Below, piece after piece: positions 3,212 to 9,848 of a stretch of DNA of 9,928 bases (the first letter of the stretch is position 1; each line of letters starts with the position of its first letter). Under the pieces are notes generated by a model. That model worked only from the letters and a program-made list of their open reading frames with translations. It had not been told where the DNA came from and ran no database searches. Source of the stretch: a virus. Lineage: Duplodnaviria > Heunggongvirae > Uroviricota > Caudoviricetes. A program made the position numbers and the translations under genes. The stretch covers positions 1 to 9,928 of the IMG/VR virus record IMGVR_UViG_2698536618_000006, one strand, 5' to 3'.

Positions 3212-3993
3212 GCTGCCACCTTCTGCTCAGTGGCTTTCTGTTTCAGGAATCCAAGAGCTTTCACTGCTTCGGCCTGTGTCAGTTCTGACGATGCGCGAAT
3301 GTCGCGGCGAAATATCTGGGAACAGAGCGGCAATAAGTCGTCATCCCATGTTTTATCCAGGGCGATCAGCAGAGTGTTAATCTCCTGCATGGTTTCATCG
3401 TTAACCGGAGTGATGTCGCGTTCTGGCTGACGTTCTGCAGTGTATGCAGTATTTTCGACAATGCGCTCGGCTTCATCCTTGTCATAGATACCAGCAAATC
3501 CGAAGGCCAGACGGGCACACTGAATCATGGCTTTATGCCGTAACATCCGTTTGGGATGCGACTGCCACGGCCCCGTGATTTCTCTGCCTTCGCGAGTTTT
3601 GAATGGTTCGCGGCGGCATTCATCCATCCATTCGGTAACGCAGATCGGATGATTACGGTCCTTGCGGTAAATCCGGCATGTACAGGATTCATTGTCCTGC
3701 TCAAAGTCCATGCCATCAAACTGCTGGTTTTCATTGATGATGCGGGACCAGCCATCAACGCCCACCACCGGAACGATGCCGTTCTGCTTATCAGGGAAGG
3801 CGTAAATTTCTTTCGTCCACGGATTAAGGCCGTACTGGTTGGCAACGATCAGTAATGCGATGAACTGCGCATCGCTGGCATCACCTTTAAATGCCGTCTG
3901 GCGAAGAGTGGTGATCAGTTCCTGTGGGTCGACAGAATCCATGCCGACACGTTCAGCCAGCTTCCCAGCCAGCGTTGCGAGTGCTGTACTCAT
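3208..3993 (-). CDS. bet: Bet (Red-beta) single-strand annealing protein, 261 aa
   Basis: [66 protein letters not shown]... recognisable as lambda Bet. Sits between gam and exo in the lambda order. Confidence 0.95.
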
Positions 3994-4513: not shown

Positions 4514-4646
4514 TCTTTGGGACTCCTGGCTGATTAAGTATGTCGATAAGGCGTTTCCATCCGTCACGTAATTTACGGGTGATTCGTTCAAGTAAAGATT
4601 CGGAAGGGCAGCCAGCAACAGGCCACCCTGCAATGGCATATTGCAT
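4482..4646 (-). CDS. cIII: CIII, FtsH (HflB) protease inhibitor, 54 aa
   Basis: Internal ATG at 4646-4644 preceded by AAGGAG. Translation [54 protein letters not shown] matches lambda CIII. Confidence 0.9.
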   Translation of the reverse strand: MQYAIAGWPVAGCPSESLLERITRKLRDGWKRLIDILNQPGVPKNGSNTYGYPD

Positions 4647-4718
4647 GGTGTGCTCCTTATTTATACATAACGAAAAACGCCTCGAGTGAAGCGTTATTGG
4701 TATGCGGTAAAACCGCAC

Positions 4719-5683: not shown

Positions 5684-6265
5684 ATGAACAACTCATGGTG
5701 GCAGGAACTAATGCATTTTTTCCTGCAAGGAATGACACTTAAACAGTTGATTCATATGCTAATCATCCTGATCATATTGATTATTGTTATGCCGGTAAGC
5801 GTAAAAGAATGGATAAACCTGCATAATCCAGAAATCCTTCCTCATTATTGGATGTATTACATCCTGTTGTTCTGCGTTAGCTATGTGCTTAACGGTGTTG
5901 TTAATTCCGCTTATCACGCTGTGACTGAAAGAATTGAGGTATCCGCTGCTCAGAAGCGCAAATCTAAAGAAGAAAAATATGTGCAAGATTTGTTTGATTC
6001 GTTAACTCTTGGAGAAAGAGCGTATTTGGCATTCGCTGTAGCCGCGAATAACCAGCTAAAGACAGAAAAGGGAAGCCCTGAAGCAATCTCATTGCTCGAA
6101 AAAGGGCTTCTTATTCGGATACCTTCTGCTACTGGATATCCTGAAATCGACCGTTTTGTTATCCCGGAACGCTATAGAAATGAGTGCTACATTAGGTTTG
6201 CTGGGAAGAAAGACAGTCTTATGGATGAACTTATCGCTCAGGATAAGCATGGCAAAAACAAGTAA
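5684..6265 (+). CDS. sieB: Superinfection exclusion protein B (SieB), membrane protein, 193 aa
   Basis: ATG at 5684. Hydrophobic N-terminal segment (LIHMLIILIILIIVMPV) and a sequence recognisable as lambda/P22 SieB. Plus-strand gene between ral and N, as in lambda. Confidence 0.85.
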   Translation: MNNSWWQELMHFFLQGMTLKQLIHMLIILIILIIVMPVSVKEWINLHNPEILPHYWMYYILLFCVSYVLNGVVNSAYHAVTERIEVSAAQKRKSKEEKYVQDLFDSLTLGERAYLAFAVAANNQLKTEKGSPEAISLLEKGLLIRIPSATGYPEIDRFVIPERYRNECYIRFAGKKDSLMDELIAQDKHGKNK

Positions 6266-6280
6266 TTAGCAAATGATTTA

Positions 6281-6553
6281 TCATCTCGCCGTCAGTTGTT
6301 TTGATTTCCTGTAGCCTGCCGCGTAAATGGCTACGTTTGGCAGGCAAACACTTCCACTGCATTCATCAACTTTCTTGCAGCGAAGACTTCCGAGTGATGC
6401 TGCTTTGTCTGCTCTGACGCAACCAGAGAGCTTTAGCGCAATTTTTCGCGCCAGTCGCTGCTCTTGCATCGCCTGTTCACGTTGAGCCTGTCTGCGTGCT
6501 CTGCGGCGATTTCTGGCGTTATCGTCAGCCAGATATGTAATGACTACTGTCAT
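6281..6553 (-). CDS. N: N-type transcription antitermination protein, 90 aa
   Basis: Internal ATG at 6553-6551 preceded by GGAGG (the track ORF begins at a GTG further upstream). Arginine-rich N-terminal motif DDNARNRRRARRQAQREQ and a C-terminus CLPNVAIYAAGYRKSKQLTAR like the N proteins of 933W and P22. First gene downstream of pL/nutL. Confidence 0.8.
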   Translation of the reverse strand: MTVVITYLADDNARNRRRARRQAQREQAMQEQRLARKIALKLSGCVRADKAASLGSLRCKKVDECSGSVCLPNVAIYAAGYRKSKQLTAR

Positions 6554-6863
6554 GTTGACCTCCGATGAAACAACTTTGGAATTGATAGTGATTGCAAAGT
6601 GGTTTCTGGCCCCTCGAATTGAGGGGCAGAAAGAGCATCTCGCCACCTAATAGGTCGATGCTCGGATCGAGAGATTTAATTAACCTCGGTTTTGAAGTTA
6701 TGCATTCACATAAATCCTCCTGTTGCATGTGCAGCATTGGCTGTGTTTGGCGGCTGCATTTCGCCTATGGAATTGACTTTGGCGGTGACGCGCCGGGTGC
6801 TTATCTTCCGGTTGCCGTCGTGCAGCTGCACTTCACGTCACCCCAAAGCCAACTACTCTTTGG

Positions 6864-6905
6864 TTCCCGCATTTCGGCGGGACAATCCCATCAATGTTAA
6901 AGAGC
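6864..6905 (-). promoter_or_regulatory. nutL: nutL: boxA GCTCTTTAACA plus boxB hairpin
   Basis: On the minus strand, GGCTCTTTAACA (plus 6895-6905), a 12-nt spacer, then UCCCGCCGAAAUGCGGGAA (plus 6864-6882). The same boxA core and an identical 19-nt boxB recur on the plus strand between cro and cII (8534-8578). Confidence 0.7.
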
Positions 6906-6951
6906 CTGCCAATCTGTTCCGTTTGGCTACCAGCGTCCTGCTGATGGTTAA

Positions 6952-6980
6952 AGAATACTGTAGGTATTTTATTTTGTAAA
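6952..6980 (-). promoter_or_regulatory. pL: pL early-left promoter: -35 TTTACA, 17-bp spacer, -10 TATTCT
   Basis: On the minus strand the -35 is at plus 6975-6980 and the -10 at plus 6952-6957. The -10 lies inside the OL1 operator and the -35 abuts OL2. The same -10 hexamer is used by the candidate pR. Confidence 0.6.
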
Positions 6981-7037
6981 TACTCAAGGTATTTATTTTG
7001 GTGAAATAATGATAAGCAAATGAATACAAAGGATATT
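6954..7037. promoter_or_regulatory. OL: OL operator array: three 15-bp sites with consensus AATAC-N5-GTATT
   Basis: AATACTGTAGGTATT (6954-6968), AATACTCAAGGTATT (6979-6993) and AATACAAAGGATATT (7023-7037, one mismatch). The first two are 25 bp apart, the same spacing as the OR sites. Confidence 0.6.
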
Positions 7038-7123
7038 TATTTTTTCGGCGTCTGCTTGTTCAGTGCTTTTTATGCGGGATATGTGAAGTGGATCCCGATA
7101 GCTATTGCTGCCGGGATTATGGG

Positions 7124-7492
7124 TTAGTCAGCGAAGGTTAAGACGAGAATTACCTTAATGATGTCTGCTACAACAGACACGGCCATAGATAAACCAAAGA
7201 CGATCCAAGCCATAGAGATGTCTTCACTACCATCGTATAGAGTTCCGTAATCACTGGTATAAGGCGTAAATGTCGCGCCTTGATACAATAGGTATAAGCT
7301 TGATCCATAGAGGATAAATGCAGATATCCCTTGTATTGCTATGATCACCAGAATCATGAAACGAGCTGATCTATGCGCCCAAGCCTGGCTTATTTTTTCT
7401 GATAGAGATTTCGCAAGAAAAGCATGCGCTAAGCCGTAAATTGTCGAGATTGCCAACATCCCAAAAAAGCTTGCTATAGCGGTTCCAACCAT
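7124..7492 (-). CDS. Small integral membrane protein (122 aa, three predicted TM helices), co-transcribed downstream of cI; function unknown
   Basis: ATG at 7492-7490 with AAGGGG Shine-Dalgarno 5 nt upstream; the track's 7513 start is a TTG. It begins 17 nt after the cI stop on the same strand. Three hydrophobic stretches: residues ~2-27, ~45-70, ~94-120. It occupies the position that rexA/rexB hold in lambda. Confidence 0.65.
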   Translation of the reverse strand: MVGTAIASFFGMLAISTIYGLAHAFLAKSLSEKISQAWAHRSARFMILVIIAIQGISAFILYGSSLYLLYQGATFTPYTSDYGTLYDGSEDISMAWIVFGLSMAVSVVADIIKVILVLTFAD

Positions 7493-7509
7493 AAGCGCCC
7501 CTTGCGTGA

Positions 7510-8226
7510 TCAAACCAGCCTTAGTTTTGTCTCAATTGCAACGCCTATAATCTTGCAGTTTCCATTGATTGGCACGAGAGGCCATGCAGGATTAAGTCCC
7601 TTGAGGTATTTATTTCCGCCGTCGATTATCAGCTTCTTGAATGTTGCTTCGTTAGAGTCAGAAAGTTTTGCTATGACCAAGCTGCCGTTGACCGCCTCCC
7701 TTCCGGTATCGAAAAGAACGAATGTTCCCTCTGGAATGCTTAACCCAACCGGTGCCGTCATTGAATCACCTTCCACTTTAAGCCAGAACGCATTACCTTG
7801 AATATGCGCGTCAGACTCAAGCCAAACATCTATGTCTTTAATGGTGTATGGTTCGCATGCTTCACACCACGAGCCAGCCTGGATACTGCTTAACACCGGA
7901 TACCTCTTTCCTGCTCTGTATTCCCCTGCATACCTTACGTTGGCATCGCTCTTAAGGCTTTCTGCCTGTTCTGCAACCTTGGCAGCAATTGACTGGCTAA
8001 AATCAGCAATTGAGACTTGCAACAACCGTGCAAAACCAGATGCAACCTCAACGTTTAGCGCGTTTCTGCCATTAAGATAATGCCCTACCGCTCCTTGGGT
8101 GATACCCAGTTCATCAGCGATTGAGTATTGGGTTATTCCCAATTCTTTCTTTTTTGACTCATACAAAGCCTTAAGCCGCTTAGCGTCTTCGAGCTGTTCT
8201 GTCGTCAGTGATTTTTTATTTTCCAT
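7510..8226 (-). CDS. cI: CI-type prophage repressor (HTH N-terminal domain, LexA-like S24 autopeptidase C-terminal domain), 238 aa
   Basis: ATG at 8226-8224. The N-terminal region resembles lambda CI (LTTEQLEDAKRLKALYESKKKELGITQ). The C-terminal domain resembles 434 CI / P22 C2, with an Ala-Gly cleavage site (IQAGSW), the catalytic Ser in GDSM and Lys in FKKL. Divergent from cro with operators in between. Confidence 0.9.
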   Translation of the reverse strand: MENKKSLTTEQLEDAKRLKALYESKKKELGITQYSIADELGITQGAVGHYLNGRNALNVEVASGFARLLQVSIADFSQSIAAKVAEQAESLKSDANVRYAGEYRAGKRYPVLSSIQAGSWCEACEPYTIKDIDVWLESDAHIQGNAFWLKVEGDSMTAPVGLSIPEGTFVLFDTGREAVNGSLVIAKLSDSNEATFKKLIIDGGNKYLKGLNPAWPLVPINGNCKIIGVAIETKLRLV

Positions 8227-8237
8227 AGCTTAATTCT

Positions 8238-8303
8238 AATAGCTAAGGTACTTAAACTAAAAATACCCTGAGTATTGATTGATTTGAATACCTGTAGTAT
8301 TCT
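8238..8303. promoter_or_regulatory. OR: OR operator region with pR (-35 TTGATT 8275-8280, -10 TATTCT 8298-8303) and a candidate leaderless pRM
   Basis: OR1 AATACCTGTAGTATT (8287-8301) and OR2 AATACCCTGAGTATT (8262-8276) are 25 bp apart; a degenerate third site AATAGCTAAGGTACT lies at 8238-8252. The pR -10 sits inside OR1. On the minus strand a TAGAAT hexamer (plus 8233-8238) lies 6 nt upstream of the cI ATG, suggesting a leaderless cI mRNA as in lambda. Confidence 0.6.
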
Positions 8304-8332
8304 TTGTTCATGGTTAATAACGGAGAGTGCAT

Positions 8333-8527
8333 ATGATTCGAATGACACTTGCCGATTACGCCAAAATCCATGGACAGGCTAAAGCAGCCAGTGACTTTGG
8401 TGTAATCCAGTGCGCTATCAGCAAGGCCATTCTGGCAGGCCGTAACATCATGGTTACGGTAAAGCCTGATGGCAGTGTGATTGGAGAGGAAGTTCGTCCT
8501 TTCCCAAGCAACAAGAAAAACAAATAG
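8333..8527 (+). CDS. cro: Cro repressor, 64 aa
   Basis: ATG at 8333 with GGAGA Shine-Dalgarno 6 nt upstream (the track start at 8327 is a GTG). [64 protein letters not shown] resembles lambda Cro. First gene downstream of pR. Confidence 0.85.
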
Positions 8528-8533
8528 TAACAC

Positions 8534-8578
8534 CGCTCTTTAACAGTCATGGTCATCACTCCCGCCGAAATGCGGGAA
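8534..8578 (+). promoter_or_regulatory. nutR: nutR: boxA CGCTCTTTAACA plus boxB hairpin
   Basis: boxA at 8534-8545, a 14-nt spacer, then UCCCGCCGAAAUGCGGGAA at 8560-8578, identical to the nutL boxB. A GCGCA...TGCGC hairpin with a T-rich tail at 8585-8618 may mark a tR1-like region. Confidence 0.7.
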
Positions 8579-8635
8579 TACAACGCGCATAATTTGATGC
8601 GCATAACTTCTTATTTGTTAAGGAAATACTTACAT

Positions 8636-8914
8636 ATGCAACTTACAAGTACTCGCAAGAAAGCGAATGCAATTACAAGCAACATCCTGAATCGAATTGC
8701 TGTACGTGGTCAGCGAAAGGTTGCCGACGCGTTAGGGATTAATGAATCGCAAATTTCGCGATGGAAAGACAGCTTTATCCCAAAGATGGCCATGCTTCTG
8801 GCTGTGCTGGAGTGGGGTGTTGAAGACGAGGAATTAGCAAAGCTAGCAAAGAAAGTAGCCATGGTGCTGACAAAAGAAAAGCCTCAAGACTGCTGCAACA
8901 GTTTTGAGGCCTGA
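8636..8914 (+). CDS. cII: CII transcriptional activator, 92 aa
   Basis: Start re-set to ATG 8636 (AAGGAAA upstream); the track ORF start at 8549 lies inside nutR. HTH region ...GINESQISRWKDSFIPKMAMLLAVLEWGV resembles lambda CII (...QISRWKRDWIPKFSMLLAVLEWGV). Confidence 0.85.
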   Translation: MQLTSTRKKANAITSNILNRIAVRGQRKVADALGINESQISRWKDSFIPKMAMLLAVLEWGVEDEELAKLAKKVAMVLTKEKPQDCCNSFEA

Positions 8915-8939
8915 TGTAGAAAGACTGGATCAATCCACA
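8872..8939 (-). ncRNA. oop: oop-like antisense RNA, candidate (terminator hairpin in the cII 3' end; promoter pO in the O 5' end)
   Basis: Minus-strand hairpin GCCTCAA...TTGAGGC (plus 8881-8910) followed by TTTTCTTTT (plus A-run 8872-8880). Candidate minus-strand promoter -35 TTGAGT / -10 CATAAT at plus 8946-8974. This matches the lambda oop arrangement. The 5' end is estimated. Confidence 0.45.
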
Positions 8940-8948
8940 GGAGTCATT

Positions 8949-9848
8949 ATGACAAATACAGCAAAAATACTCAACTTCTGCAGAGGTAACTTTGCCAAAC
9001 AGGAGCGTAATGTGGCAGATCTCGATGATGGTTACGCCAGACTATCAAATATGCTGCTTGAGGCTTATTCAGGCGCAGATCTGACCAAGCGACAGTTTAA
9101 AGTGCTGCTTGCCATTCTGCGTAAAACCTATGGGTGGAATAAACCAATGGACAGAATCACCGATTCTCAACTTAGCGAGATTACAAAGTTACCCGTCAAA
9201 CGGTGCAATGAAGCCAAGTTAGAACTCGTCAGAATGAATATTATCAAGCAGCAAGGCGGCATGTTTGGACCAAATAAAAACATCTCAGAATGGTGTATCC
9301 CTCAAAACGAGGGAAAATCCCCTAAAACGAGGGATAAAACATCCCTCAAATTGGGGGATTGCTATCCCTCAAAACAGGGGGACACAAAAGACACTAATAC
9401 AAAAGAAAAAAGAAAAGATTATTCGTCAGAGAATTCTGGCGAATCCTCTGACCAGCCAGAAAACGATCTTTCTGTGGTTAAACCGGATGCTGCAATTCAG
9501 AGCGGCAGCAAGTGGGGAACAGCAGAAGACCTGACCGCCGCAGAGTGGATGTTTGACATGGTGAAGACTATCGCACCATCAGCCAGAAAACCGAATTTTG
9601 CTGGGTGGGCTAACGATATCCGCCTGATGCGTGAACGTGACGGACGTAACCATCGCGACATGTGTGTACTGTTCCGCTGGGCATGCCAGGACAACTTCTG
9701 GTCCGGTAACGTTCTTAGCCCGGCCAAACTCCGCGACAAGTGGACCCAGCTCGAAATCAACCGTAACAAGCAACAGGCAGTCGTGACAGCCAGCAAACCA
9801 AAACTCGACCTGACAAACACAGACTGGATTTACGGGGTGGATCTATGA
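8949..9848 (+). CDS. O: Replication initiator O, 299 aa
   Basis: Start re-set to ATG 8949 (AGGAG upstream). MTNTAKILNFCRGNFAKQERNVADLDDGYARLSNMLLEAYSG... closely matches lambda O along its whole length from memory. It contains the iteron origin internally, and its stop overlaps the P start. Confidence 0.95.
   Translation: MTNTAKILNFCRGNFAKQERNVADLDDGYARLSNMLLEAYSGADLTKRQFKVLLAILRKTYGWNKPMDRITDSQLSEITKLPVKRCNEAKLELVRMNIIKQQGGMFGPNKNISEWCIPQNEGKSPKTRDKTSLKLGDCYPSKQGDTKDTNTKEKRKDYSSENSGESSDQPENDLSVVKPDAAIQSGSKWGTAEDLTAAEWMFDMVKTIAPSARKPNFAGWANDIRLMRERDGRNHRDMCVLFRWACQDNFWSGNVLSPAKLRDKWTQLEINRNKQQAVVTASKPKLDLTNTDWIYGVDL
9296..9420. repeat. ori: Lambda-type replication origin: four iterons (about 9296-9381) plus an A/T-rich region (9382-9420) inside O
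   Basis: Four tandem ~19-24 bp repeats, each an inverted repeat of the form TCCCTCAAAACGAGGGA (ATCCCTCAAAACGAGGGA, AAATCCCCTAAAACGAGGGA, ACATCCCTCAAATTGGGGGA, ATCCCTCAAAACAGGGGGA), followed by ACAAAAGACACTAATACAAAAGAAAAAAGAAAAGATTATT. Confidence 0.8.

Follow-up and report, generated by a model that had tools for sequence, protein, structure and literature searches.

Putative nutL and nutR of phage HK140 and the association of boxB type with the arginine-rich motif of N

The two copies of the 19-mer TCCCGCCGAAATGCGGGAA described here are very probably nutL and nutR of phage HK140 and belong to the HK620 specificity type, as judged by sequence comparison. The window, by which we mean the whole 9,928-nt stretch of DNA that was analysed, is 100% identical to HK140, and its immunity region is ~97% identical to that of phage HK620. 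The GenBank record of HK620 labels the same boxA plus boxB stretches putative nutL and nutR, while the HK140 record labels the boxA sites; the HK140 nut sites are thus already known, being annotated as putative in this close relative. Comparison of natural mosaics further supports the view that the type of boxB tracks the arginine-rich motif (ARM) at the N-terminus of the antitermination protein N, rather than the rest of N or the immunity genes.

Position of the repeats in the early region

The 19-mer is present in exactly two copies in the window, at 6864-6882 on the minus strand and at 8560-8578 on the plus strand. A further match could not be found in the window even when up to 2 mismatches were allowed, and 200 shuffles of the window gave 0 matches. 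The boxA core GCTCTTTAACA (RNA GCUCUUUAACA) is matched exactly at 6895-6905 (minus) and 8535-8545 (plus), with a boxA-boxB spacer of 12 nt in nutL and 14 nt in nutR, and the combined pattern of boxA, 12 to 14 nt and boxB has 2 matches in the window as against 0 expected. This exact-match search agrees with the sequence-only reading that preceded the present analysis, in which the 19-mer had been placed once in the pL transcript and once in the pR transcript, 12-14 nt past boxA. At both sites boxA conforms to the consensus (C/U)GCUCUU(U)A and, read as transcript, is on the 5′ side of the hairpin. The core is the same as that of P22 nutL and of both nutL and nutR of phi21, and we take the HK140 boxA to be rrn-like, in part on account of this identity. 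The features of the early region are as follows.

6952..6980, minus: pL (−35 TTTACA, 17-nt spacer, −10 TATTCT), from the promoter scan; coincides with the HK620-annotated pL and OL1
6895..6905, minus: nutL boxA core GCTCTTTAACA, exact match; inside the HK620-annotated nutL; the HK140 record has 'putative Nut boxA' here
6864..6882, minus: putative nutL boxB; 5′ arm 6882-6877 UCCCGC, loop 6876-6871 CGAAAU, 3′ arm 6870-6865 GCGGGA, trailing A
6281..6553, minus: N antitermination protein, 90 aa (HK140_047 annotation, Pfam and phrog matches)
6491-6520, minus: ARM NARNRRRARR, N residues 12-21, from the translation
8275..8310, plus: pR (−35 TTGATT 8275-8280, −10 TATTCT 8298-8303), predicted by homology to the HK620 annotation
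8333..8527, plus: cro, between pR and nutR (Pfam Cro, E = 3.6e-26; HK140_051 annotation)
8535..8545, plus: nutR boxA core GCTCTTTAACA, exact match; inside the HK620-annotated nutR, boxA marked in the HK140 record
8560..8578, plus: putative nutR boxB; 5′ arm 8560-8565, loop 8566-8571, 3′ arm 8572-8577, trailing A
8585..8602, plus: candidate tR1 hairpin GCGCAU-AAUUUG-AUGCGC followed by a U-rich stretch, from the fold; between nutR and cII

The promoter pL was the sole promoter-like site called by the consensus scan in 6200-8950, and the nutL boxA begins ~40 nt downstream of its probable start. The scan missed pR because the latter matches the consensus at only 8/12 positions; it was placed by adding 5987 to the coordinates of the HK620 pR (L001 2288-2323) to give those of the window. 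The pL transcript accordingly carries one of the two sites, upstream of N, and the pR transcript the other, after cro and before cII: the nutR boxA starts 8 nt past the cro stop codon, and cII starts at 8636. The HK620 record places tR1 directly after nutR. Since the scan made no intrinsic-terminator call at 8585..8602, we assign terminator function to this hairpin only provisionally; if it does act as tR1, it would be the first barrier for N to override on the rightward transcript.

The product of the gene at 6281..6553 is a member of the N family, scoring 57.7 bits against Pfam PF25694 (N_peptide; cutoff 27.9) and matching phrog_271 (N-like) with E = 2.4e-34. A search of the sequences of solved structures with N returned chance matches only and no relative. 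The N-terminal ARM reads ...DDNARNRRRARRQAQREQ, and the motif NARNRRRARR, which the earlier reading had taken as an arginine-rich motif peculiar to this N, was confirmed at residues 12-21. With the nut sites at the lambdoid nutL and nutR positions and an N-family protein in the N position, the assignment of pL, pR and N made in that reading is upheld, and the early-transcription map of HK140 (pL, nutL, N, pR, cro, nutR) is fixed.

The boxB hairpin and its variants

Each 19-mer can form a hairpin with a 6-bp stem, UCCCGC/GCGGGA, and a 6-nt loop, CGAAAU. The loop length proposed from the letters alone therefore stands, whereas the 5-bp stem CCCGC/GCGGG proposed with it is only the core of the longer one. 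The predicted fold has an energy of −10.7 kcal/mol (z = −3.85), and the nutL hairpin is also present in the minimum-energy fold of the entire 401-nt pL leader. Its dimensions and its distance from boxA fall within those of a boxB (stem of 5-7 bp, loop of 4-7 nt, up to a few tens of nt past boxA). When the entire window was searched permissively against Rfam, neither nut site matched a family; the one real Rfam match in the window is the cIII thermoregulator, located elsewhere.

Being stable, rich in GC and located in early transcripts shortly downstream of pL and of cro, the hairpins might act as terminators or attenuators rather than as sites for the loading of N. We find this scarcely credible. 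Both copies lack a U tract downstream (left, AACCAAAG; right, AAUACAAC), and neither boxB hairpin was called in the terminator scan; boxA, moreover, precedes each hairpin at a fixed distance, and the hairpins co-occur with a particular ARM of N, as simple terminators would not.

The variation of the stem among relatives argues for a function of the hairpin in RNA. In a small set of 14 distinct sequences, retrieved with a pattern that prescribed the loop, every cell of the six core pairs except one holds a standard pair. Pairing is retained through the changes seen, which are U-A to C-G, C-G to U·G and G-C to A-U. Two-sided changes occur at four stem pairs, a number matched by 1/500 shuffles; none of the registers slid by −1 to −3 reaches four two-sided pairs, and those slid by +1 and +2 reach at most 2. 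Loss of the hairpin in homologues was one of two observations that the earlier reading had named as fatal to its proposal; in the 14 distinct variants pairing is kept. That the variants preserve pairing and not sequence points to selection at the RNA level.

This observation also bears on the idea that the 19-mers act mainly as DNA, whether as border or recombination sequences on either side of the exchangeable immunity module or as an inverted repeat bound by a protein, with any role in RNA being secondary. Both copies lie within ~10-65 bp of homology breakpoints between phages with different cI/cro alleles, and in the record of CUS-3 a 'boundary sequence' is marked between cI and N. However, the conserved flanks (from nutL to N and from nutR to cII) extend over hundreds of bp, to which the 19-mers would add little; recombination between repeats in inverted orientation would lead to inversion of the module, not to its exchange; and the order boxA then boxB is always that of the transcript, while the stem variants keep their pairing at the expense of sequence. 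We therefore consider a mainly DNA-level role highly improbable. The position of the nut sites at module borders would be expected in any case, because the specificity of N must travel with both of them.

Linkage of boxB and ARM in natural mosaics

The evidence that boxB type follows the ARM comes from phages in which the parts of N have been reassorted. The HK620-type ARM is found on four C-terminal modules (HK140/HK620, CUS-3, mEpX2 and Escherichia sp. E1V33), and in all four contexts it is accompanied, at both nut sites, by the boxB described here. Likewise, the phi21 ARM occurs on three C-terminal modules (HK629, imm21 and Kapi1) and always with phi21 boxBs. The N of HK629 is particularly instructive, as it combines the phi21 ARM with HK620-like residues 34-90, and the phage carries phi21 boxBs. 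Among the loci examined, there was none with the HK620-type ARM and another boxB, nor any with its boxB and another ARM. These mosaics bear out the proposal of the earlier reading that N and nut form a co-evolved pair.

Both boxBs are present in 73/80 IMG/VR loci encoding an HK140-type N, and these loci comprise four unrelated immunity (cI/cro) types. The HK140-type boxB is invariant in close relatives, where the flanks are ~97% identical too; because the flanks are equally conserved, boxB conservation in the 73 loci does not constitute independent evidence. The association was also approached from the DNA side, with sites retrieved solely by boxA and the loop CGAAAT. In this DNA-anchored test, 126 distinct sites were evaluable; 67/126 are followed by an ORF with DNA[RK]NRRRx[KR]R and 50/126 by a cII-like ORF. 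A scan of a genome collection with N gave 6 loci, too few for statistics; it contributed the E1V33 mosaic as well as two N/nut types from Pantoea.

Antitermination specificity would accordingly travel with the N-terminal ARM and the two flanking nut modules, which are retained unchanged as phages exchange cI/cro alleles and the C-terminal portions of N. Such modularity is textbook lambdoid biology. By analogy with characterised systems, transcription from pL or pR would expose on the nascent RNA boxA GCUCUUUAACA, the 12-14 nt spacer and boxB UCCCGC-CGAAAU-GCGGGA. As in lambda, P22 and phi21, boxA would be bound by the host NusB/NusE (S10), while the N-terminal ARM (...DDNARNRRRARRQAQREQ...) of the phage's own N may bind the loop and upper stem of boxB; N's central and C-terminal regions, with NusA and NusG, would then render the polymerase resistant to termination. 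The resistant polymerase could pass terminators beyond N on the left and, on the right, those in the cro-cII interval and beyond it. For the HK140 nut sites, the binding, the dependence on Nus factors and the antitermination are thus all proposed from the behaviour of these related systems.

Relation to known nut systems

The nutL and nutR of HK620 (AF335538, 7753-7794 and 9423-9468, 'putative N-utilization') have boxA and boxB identical to those of HK140, the same spacing and position, and the same N ARM. The two phages differ at one or two spacer positions of nutR and at a few residues in the C-terminal half of N, and HK140 has 204 bp inserted between nutL and N.

Outside the HK620 type, the nearest boxB is that of P22 nutR. 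The P22 boxA core GCUCUUUA is as in HK140, and the N-terminus of the P22 gene 24 protein (MTVITY...) resembles that of HK140 N (MTVVITY...), with xNA(K/R)xRRxxRR in common, whereas the remainder of the ARM is different (RRHERRRKLAIER in P22 against RRRARRQAQREQA in HK140). The stem of the P22 nutR boxB, CCGC-C-GACAA-C-GCGG, is nearly that of HK140, CCGC-C-GAAA-U-GCGG, and both are mismatched beside the loop; the loop core, however, is GACAA in P22 and GAAA in HK140. In addition, the nutL and nutR stems of P22 differ from each other, while the HK140 pair is identical over 19 nt. The sequence that marks a boxB of P22 specificity (GACAA pentaloop; GCGCU/AGCGC on the left, CCGC-C/C-GCGG on the right) is not that of HK140, whose loop core is GAAA.

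With lambda, HK140 shares the order boxA-spacer-boxB, the placement relative to pL/N and cro, the purine-rich GAAA loop and the ARM pattern A-x-x-RRR-x-RR. Lambda N requires its Trp to stack on boxB, and the HK140 ARM is without an equivalent of this residue, Trp18. The lambda boxA, CGCUCUUA(A/C), is unlike that of HK140. The lambda boxB, read from NC_001416 as GCCCUGAA(G/A)AAGGGC, forms GCCCU-GAA(G/A)A-AGGGC, with a 5-bp stem and a pentaloop as opposed to the 6-bp stem and 6-nt loop of HK140, and the spacer is 8-9 nt in lambda against 12-14 nt. Stem, loop length and spacer all differ from nutL and nutR of NC_001416, so that the HK140 sequence is not that of a lambda-specificity boxB either; this direct comparison agrees with the earlier statement that the boxB is not that of lambda.

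The phi21-type sites (imm21, HK629, Kapi1) have a boxA GCUCUUUAACA identical to that of HK140, a similar spacer length and a 6-nt loop, and the central module LARKIALKLSGCVRADKAASLGS is common to phi21-type N and HK140 N. Their loop CUAACC, their stems UCUCAAC/GUUGAGA and CACC/GGUG and their ARM GTAKSRYKARRAELIAERR are all unlike those of HK140. The VT2-Sakai and 933W/HK97 types also consist of boxA and hairpin sites; VT2-Sakai has the boxB GGCU-GAAA-AGCC, with the GAAA loop core of HK140, and its N shares with HK140 N the C-terminal tail CLPNVA(I/L)YAAGYRKSKQLTAR. Both types differ in having a ~25-30 nt spacer with an extra hairpin, and other stems and ARMs. The comparison with catalogued nut sites that had been suggested earlier thus separates the HK140 boxB from those of lambda, P22, phi21, 933W/HK97 and VT2-Sakai. 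Because its nearest relative is the P22 nutR boxB and the ARM is P22/lambda-like, it belongs, as a divergent member, to a known series and is not an unrelated solution.

The same resemblances raise the question of whether the HK140 nut sites share the specificity of a characterised N, that of P22 or lambda, in which case the claim of a specificity of its own would be wrong. The HK620 boxB CCGCCGAAAUGCGG does resemble the P22 nutR boxB CCGCCGACAACGCGG, each having a non-Watson-Crick pair beside the purine loop, C·U in HK620 and, in the right boxB of P22, a C·C pair that flanks the loop (PMC6023938); the ARM shares xNA(K/R)xRRxxRR with P22 and AxxRRRxRR with lambda. Nevertheless, the length and sequence of the loop are unlike those of lambda, P22, phi21, 933W/HK97 and VT2-Sakai, many positions of the ARM are different, it has no counterpart of the Trp of lambda N, and the exclusive partnership of ARM and boxB in the loci examined would not favour a common specificity. 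We consider shared specificity unlikely.

It is tempting to speculate, with slightly less than even confidence, that the HK620/HK140 pair represents a functionally orthogonal specificity class, structurally uncharacterised. Such a class may be defined by an ARM of the form DNA(R/K)NRRRx(K/R)R together with a boxB whose CCGC/GCGG stem carries a GAAA core between C and U. If so, a Trp-less ARM would read a hairpin with a true GNRA tetraloop, which a C·U mismatch closes, in contrast with the extruded-base pentaloops of lambda and P22. Searches of the literature on HK620 nut sites and antitermination found no paper describing or testing the HK620 boxB, nor did the searchable literature yield a binding or antitermination experiment on the HK620/HK140 N-boxB pair. 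The residual value of the present finding may lie here, as a pair apparently never studied biochemically could add one more orthogonal RNA-peptide pair and, were orthogonality confirmed, serve for peptide-RNA tethering. The HK620/HK140 ARM-boxB type is widespread in enterobacterial prophages, where it has sub-variants of its own.

The two nut sites and their setting

Two exact copies of the 19-mer TCCCGCCGAAATGCGGGAA (boxB), one on each strand, are present in the window; a third is absent from it even at two mismatches, and 200 dinucleotide-preserving shuffles gave no match. The boxA core GCTCTTTAACA is likewise matched exactly at two positions, and the composite pattern boxA-N{12,14}-boxB was found twice against zero expected, with a spacer of 12 nt in nutL and 14 nt in nutR. 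These elements and their surroundings are as follows.

5684-6265 (+), sieB (Pfam SieB)
6281-6553 (-), N, 90 aa (Pfam N_peptide, 57.7 bits, cutoff 27.9; phrog_271)
6864-6882 (-), boxB of nutL
6895-6905 (-), boxA core of nutL
6980-6952 (-), pL (promoter scan: TTTACA, 17 nt, TATTCT; coincides with the HK620 pL annotation)
7510-8226 (-), cI (Pfam HTH_3 and Peptidase_S24)
8275-8310 (+), pR (placed by HK620 homology; -10 TATTCT as in pL)
8333-8527 (+), cro (Pfam Cro)
8535-8545 (+), boxA core of nutR
8560-8578 (+), boxB of nutR
8585-8602 (+), hairpin GCGCAU-AAUUUG-AUGCGC followed by a U-rich stretch, between nutR and cII at the HK620 tR1 position
8636-8914 (+), cII (Pfam Phage_CII)

The only promoter-like site called by the scan within 6200-8950 was pL, and its agreement with the HK620 annotation places the start of nutL boxA about 40 nt into the pL transcript. 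The scan missed pR because this promoter has just 8 of 12 consensus matches. On the right, boxA starts 8 nt after the cro stop codon.

Folded in isolation, the boxB RNA is predicted to form a 6-bp stem (UCCCGC/GCGGGA) with the 6-nt loop CGAAAU (-10.7 kcal/mol, z = -3.85), and the hairpin is also present in the minimum-energy fold of the entire 401-nt pL leader. Every detail of the sequence-only reading, which had described one 19-mer per transcript, 12-14 nt downstream of boxA and forming a stem-loop with a 6-nt loop, was correct. The two hairpins might instead be terminators, but this is unlikely, as neither has a U tract on its 3' side and the intrinsic-terminator scan called neither; the scan also made no call on the 8585-8602 hairpin.

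The feature is a standard nut-site pair that is already known. The stretch 6200-8950 matches phage HK140 (JQ086370) at 100% identity; with the immunity regions of HK620, HK630, mEpX2 and several Stx phages, the identity is ~97%. The GenBank record of HK620 (AF335538) lists 'nutL; putative N-utilization leftward' and 'nutR; putative N-utilization rightward' together with pL, OL1-3, pR, OR1-3, tR1 and pRE. Aligned to the window, its nut features are the identical boxA-spacer-boxB stretches, and the HK140 record annotates both boxA sites, so that the nut sites were already in public annotation.

We regard the classical lambdoid nut-site explanation as very probable for both boxA-boxB sites. The earlier interpretation along these lines is supported by sequence, structure propensity, placement, N family membership and the linkage between boxB and the arginine-rich N-terminal motif (ARM) of N. 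In this mechanism, boxA RNA would recruit NusB/NusE, the ARM of the cognate N would bind boxB RNA, and the complex with NusA and NusG would let RNA polymerase resist termination in the pL and pR operons. A summary of what the ARM-boxB interaction does in general is given in PMC11480772; for the HK140 pair we infer N-boxB binding, Nus dependence and readthrough.

Two further elements of the window may be mentioned. A 129-aa hydrophobic ORF (7124-7513 (-)), an hkaS homologue directly downstream of cI in the rexA/rexB position of lambda, has no Pfam match but hits phrog_6534, a family of unknown function; the product may be a prophage-expressed membrane or exclusion protein. A lambda-type cIII thermoregulator RNA (4601-4659 (-)), at the start of the cIII gene, is matched full length by Rfam Lambda_thermo with 88.5 bits against a gathering score of 50.

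Comparison with catalogued nut sites

A single procedure was used to extract the nut sites of lambda, P22, lambda imm21 (phi21 immunity), HK629, Kapi1 and CUS-3, as well as those of mEpX2, VT2-Sakai, Stx2 phage I (933W-like) and HK106.

Table. ARM and boxB of the nut-site types (type; ARM; nutL boxB; nutR boxB)
lambda; MDAQTRRRERRAEKQAQW; GCCCU-GAAGA-AGGGC; GCCCU-GAAAA-AGGGC
P22; GNAKTRRHERRRKLAIER; GCGCU-GACAA-AGCGC; CCGC-C-GACAA-C-GCGG
phi21; GTAKSRYKARRAELIAERR; UCUCAAC-CUAACC-GUUGAGA; CACC-UCUAACC-GGGUG
933W/HK97/HK106; GNSRSRRRERLKAKALA; GCGCU-GACAA-AGCGC; CGCU-GACAA-AGCG
VT2-Sakai; GTAASRRRARRANLQSQE; GGCU-GAAA-AGCC; CGCU-GAAA-AGCG
HK140/HK620; DDNARNRRRARRQAQREQ; UCCCGC-CGAAAU-GCGGGA; UCCCGC-CGAAAU-GCGGGA

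The boxB had earlier been described as non-lambda. This description holds, since the HK140 boxB is distinct from each of the catalogued sites against which a check had been proposed (lambda, phi21, P22, 933W/HK97) and unlike all other types compared. The boxA core of HK140 is the same as that of P22 and phi21 and is presumably the rrn-type consensus, unlike lambda's slightly deviant CGCUCUUA. It is unlikely that HK140 has the same nut specificity as lambda or P22, even though the nearest relative of its boxB is P22 nutR: the CCGC/GCGG stems are almost identical, both have a non-canonical pair beside a purine loop, and the N-termini are visibly related (MTVITY... in P22, MTVVITY... in HK140). 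The pair flanking the loop is C·U in HK140, whereas in the P22 right boxB it is C·C, '6C-12C for right' (PMC6023938). The nutL boxB of the 933W/HK97/HK106 type, GCGCUGACAAAGCGC, is that of P22 (comparison loci L091 and L092, ~3008 (+); L087, 3137-3170), and the ARMs behind it, GNSRSRRRERLKAKALA and GNAKTRRHERRRKLAIER, differ considerably.

The boxB type follows the ARM of N

The N proteins (HK140; loci L084-L093, L002 and L096) are mosaics built of three parts, namely ARM, central module and C-terminal tail, and thereby provide natural swap experiments for ARM versus boxB. Four different downstream modules were found joined to the HK620-type ARM: a phi21-like centre with a 933W-like tail in HK140/HK620 (933W/P22-like in HK140), a phi21/lambda-like tail in CUS-3, a P22-like remainder in mEpX2 and a Kapi1-like tail in Escherichia sp. 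E1V33. All four mosaics carry UCCCGCCGAAAUGCGGGA at both nut sites. Conversely, the N of HK629 has the phi21 ARM and is of the HK620 type from residue 34 on; phi21 boxBs are carried by HK629, imm21, Kapi1 and one metagenomic relative. Two Pantoea N relatives have other ARMs and yet other hairpins. Only the C-terminal CLP(D/Q)V(A/S)IYAAGYRKS tail is shared by these prophage proteins (L099, L100), and their candidate boxA/boxB pairs differ, e.g. CUACCUG-AUG-CAGGUAG.

Larger samples show the same linkage, in line with the matched N-nut pair proposed from the sequence. Among 80 IMG/VR loci with N identity of at least 96%, both boxBs were present in the expected orientation in 73; in most of the remaining 7, one or both nut positions lie beyond the retrieved DNA, the exception being L035 (phage mEp213), with a truncated boxB remnant only and no boxA. 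Reciprocally, a DNA-only scan of IMG/VR (boxA, 16-22 nt, then CGAAAT) gave 126 evaluable distinct sites, followed within 1 kb downstream by an ORF with DNA[RK]NRRRx[KR]R in 67 cases and by a cII-like ORF in 50; a crude regex found neither ORF type at 9, several of which are visibly nutR.

In the N-anchored loci, the DNA between the nut sites belongs to four unrelated immunity types. Homology between these types ends ~65 nt upstream of boxB in nutL and, in nutR, a few bases before boxA. The nut sites therefore move together with the N and cII flanks rather than with cI/cro, and for this reason the invariance of boxB in this sample does not count as separate evidence that the hairpin is under selection. 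The inverted 19-mers could also be viewed as a DNA-level boundary repeat, given their position near these junctions; this is unlikely.

Diverged hairpins, the N leader and mEp213

In diverged relatives from the DNA-anchored scan, the ARMs include DNARNRRRAKRAAEREQ, DNARNRRRAKRAAERNT, DNARNRRRARRAEAQSQ and DNAKNRRRDRRAAEYDK, and the remainder of N is very different. Loss of the hairpin in homologues would have spoken against the sequence-only reading; pairing is kept in the variants, with stems such as CUCCGC...GCGGGG, UUCCCGC...GCGGGGAA, UUUCCGC...GCGGGAAA and GCUCCCAC...GUCGGAGC. Across 14 distinct boxB sequences, all cells of the six core pairs but one show standard pairing. Two-sided changes affect four pairs: U-A becomes C-G in the outer core pair, G-C becomes A-U in the second pair from the loop, and both optional outer pairs are affected as well. 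This number was equalled by 1 of 500 shuffles and reached in none of the registers slid by -1 to -3, with at most two pairs at +1 and +2; sliding the 3' partner lowered the paired cells from 88% to 33-62%. With so small a sample, and a loop that the search pattern held constant, we consider this supportive rather than strong. Among these relatives, nutL differs from nutR; identity over 19 nt, as in HK140, is therefore not required.

Relative to HK620, the N leader of HK140 is longer by a 204-bp insertion (6569-6772), which lies between nutL and the ribosome-binding site of N and was found only in HK140 among 50,697 phage records. It holds the annotated 41-aa ORF HK140_048, which has no PHROG match, and, shortly before N, the strong hairpin GCCCCUC-AAUUC-GAGGGGC. 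In IMG/VR relatives, nutL and N are separated by 125 to 579 nt, which marks the N leader as an indel hotspot.

The pL operon of phage mEp213 (L088, 1718-3773) contains two N genes. A lambda-type N (2016-2348) comes first and has nutL and nutR sites of lambda type; an intact HK620-type N (3501-3773) follows. The sole cognate element of the latter is a boxB 3' half at a recombination junction (~3125), and mEp213 has neither boxA nor a matching nutR for it. Judging from this arrangement, the HK620-type N of mEp213 is apparently an orphan antiterminator.
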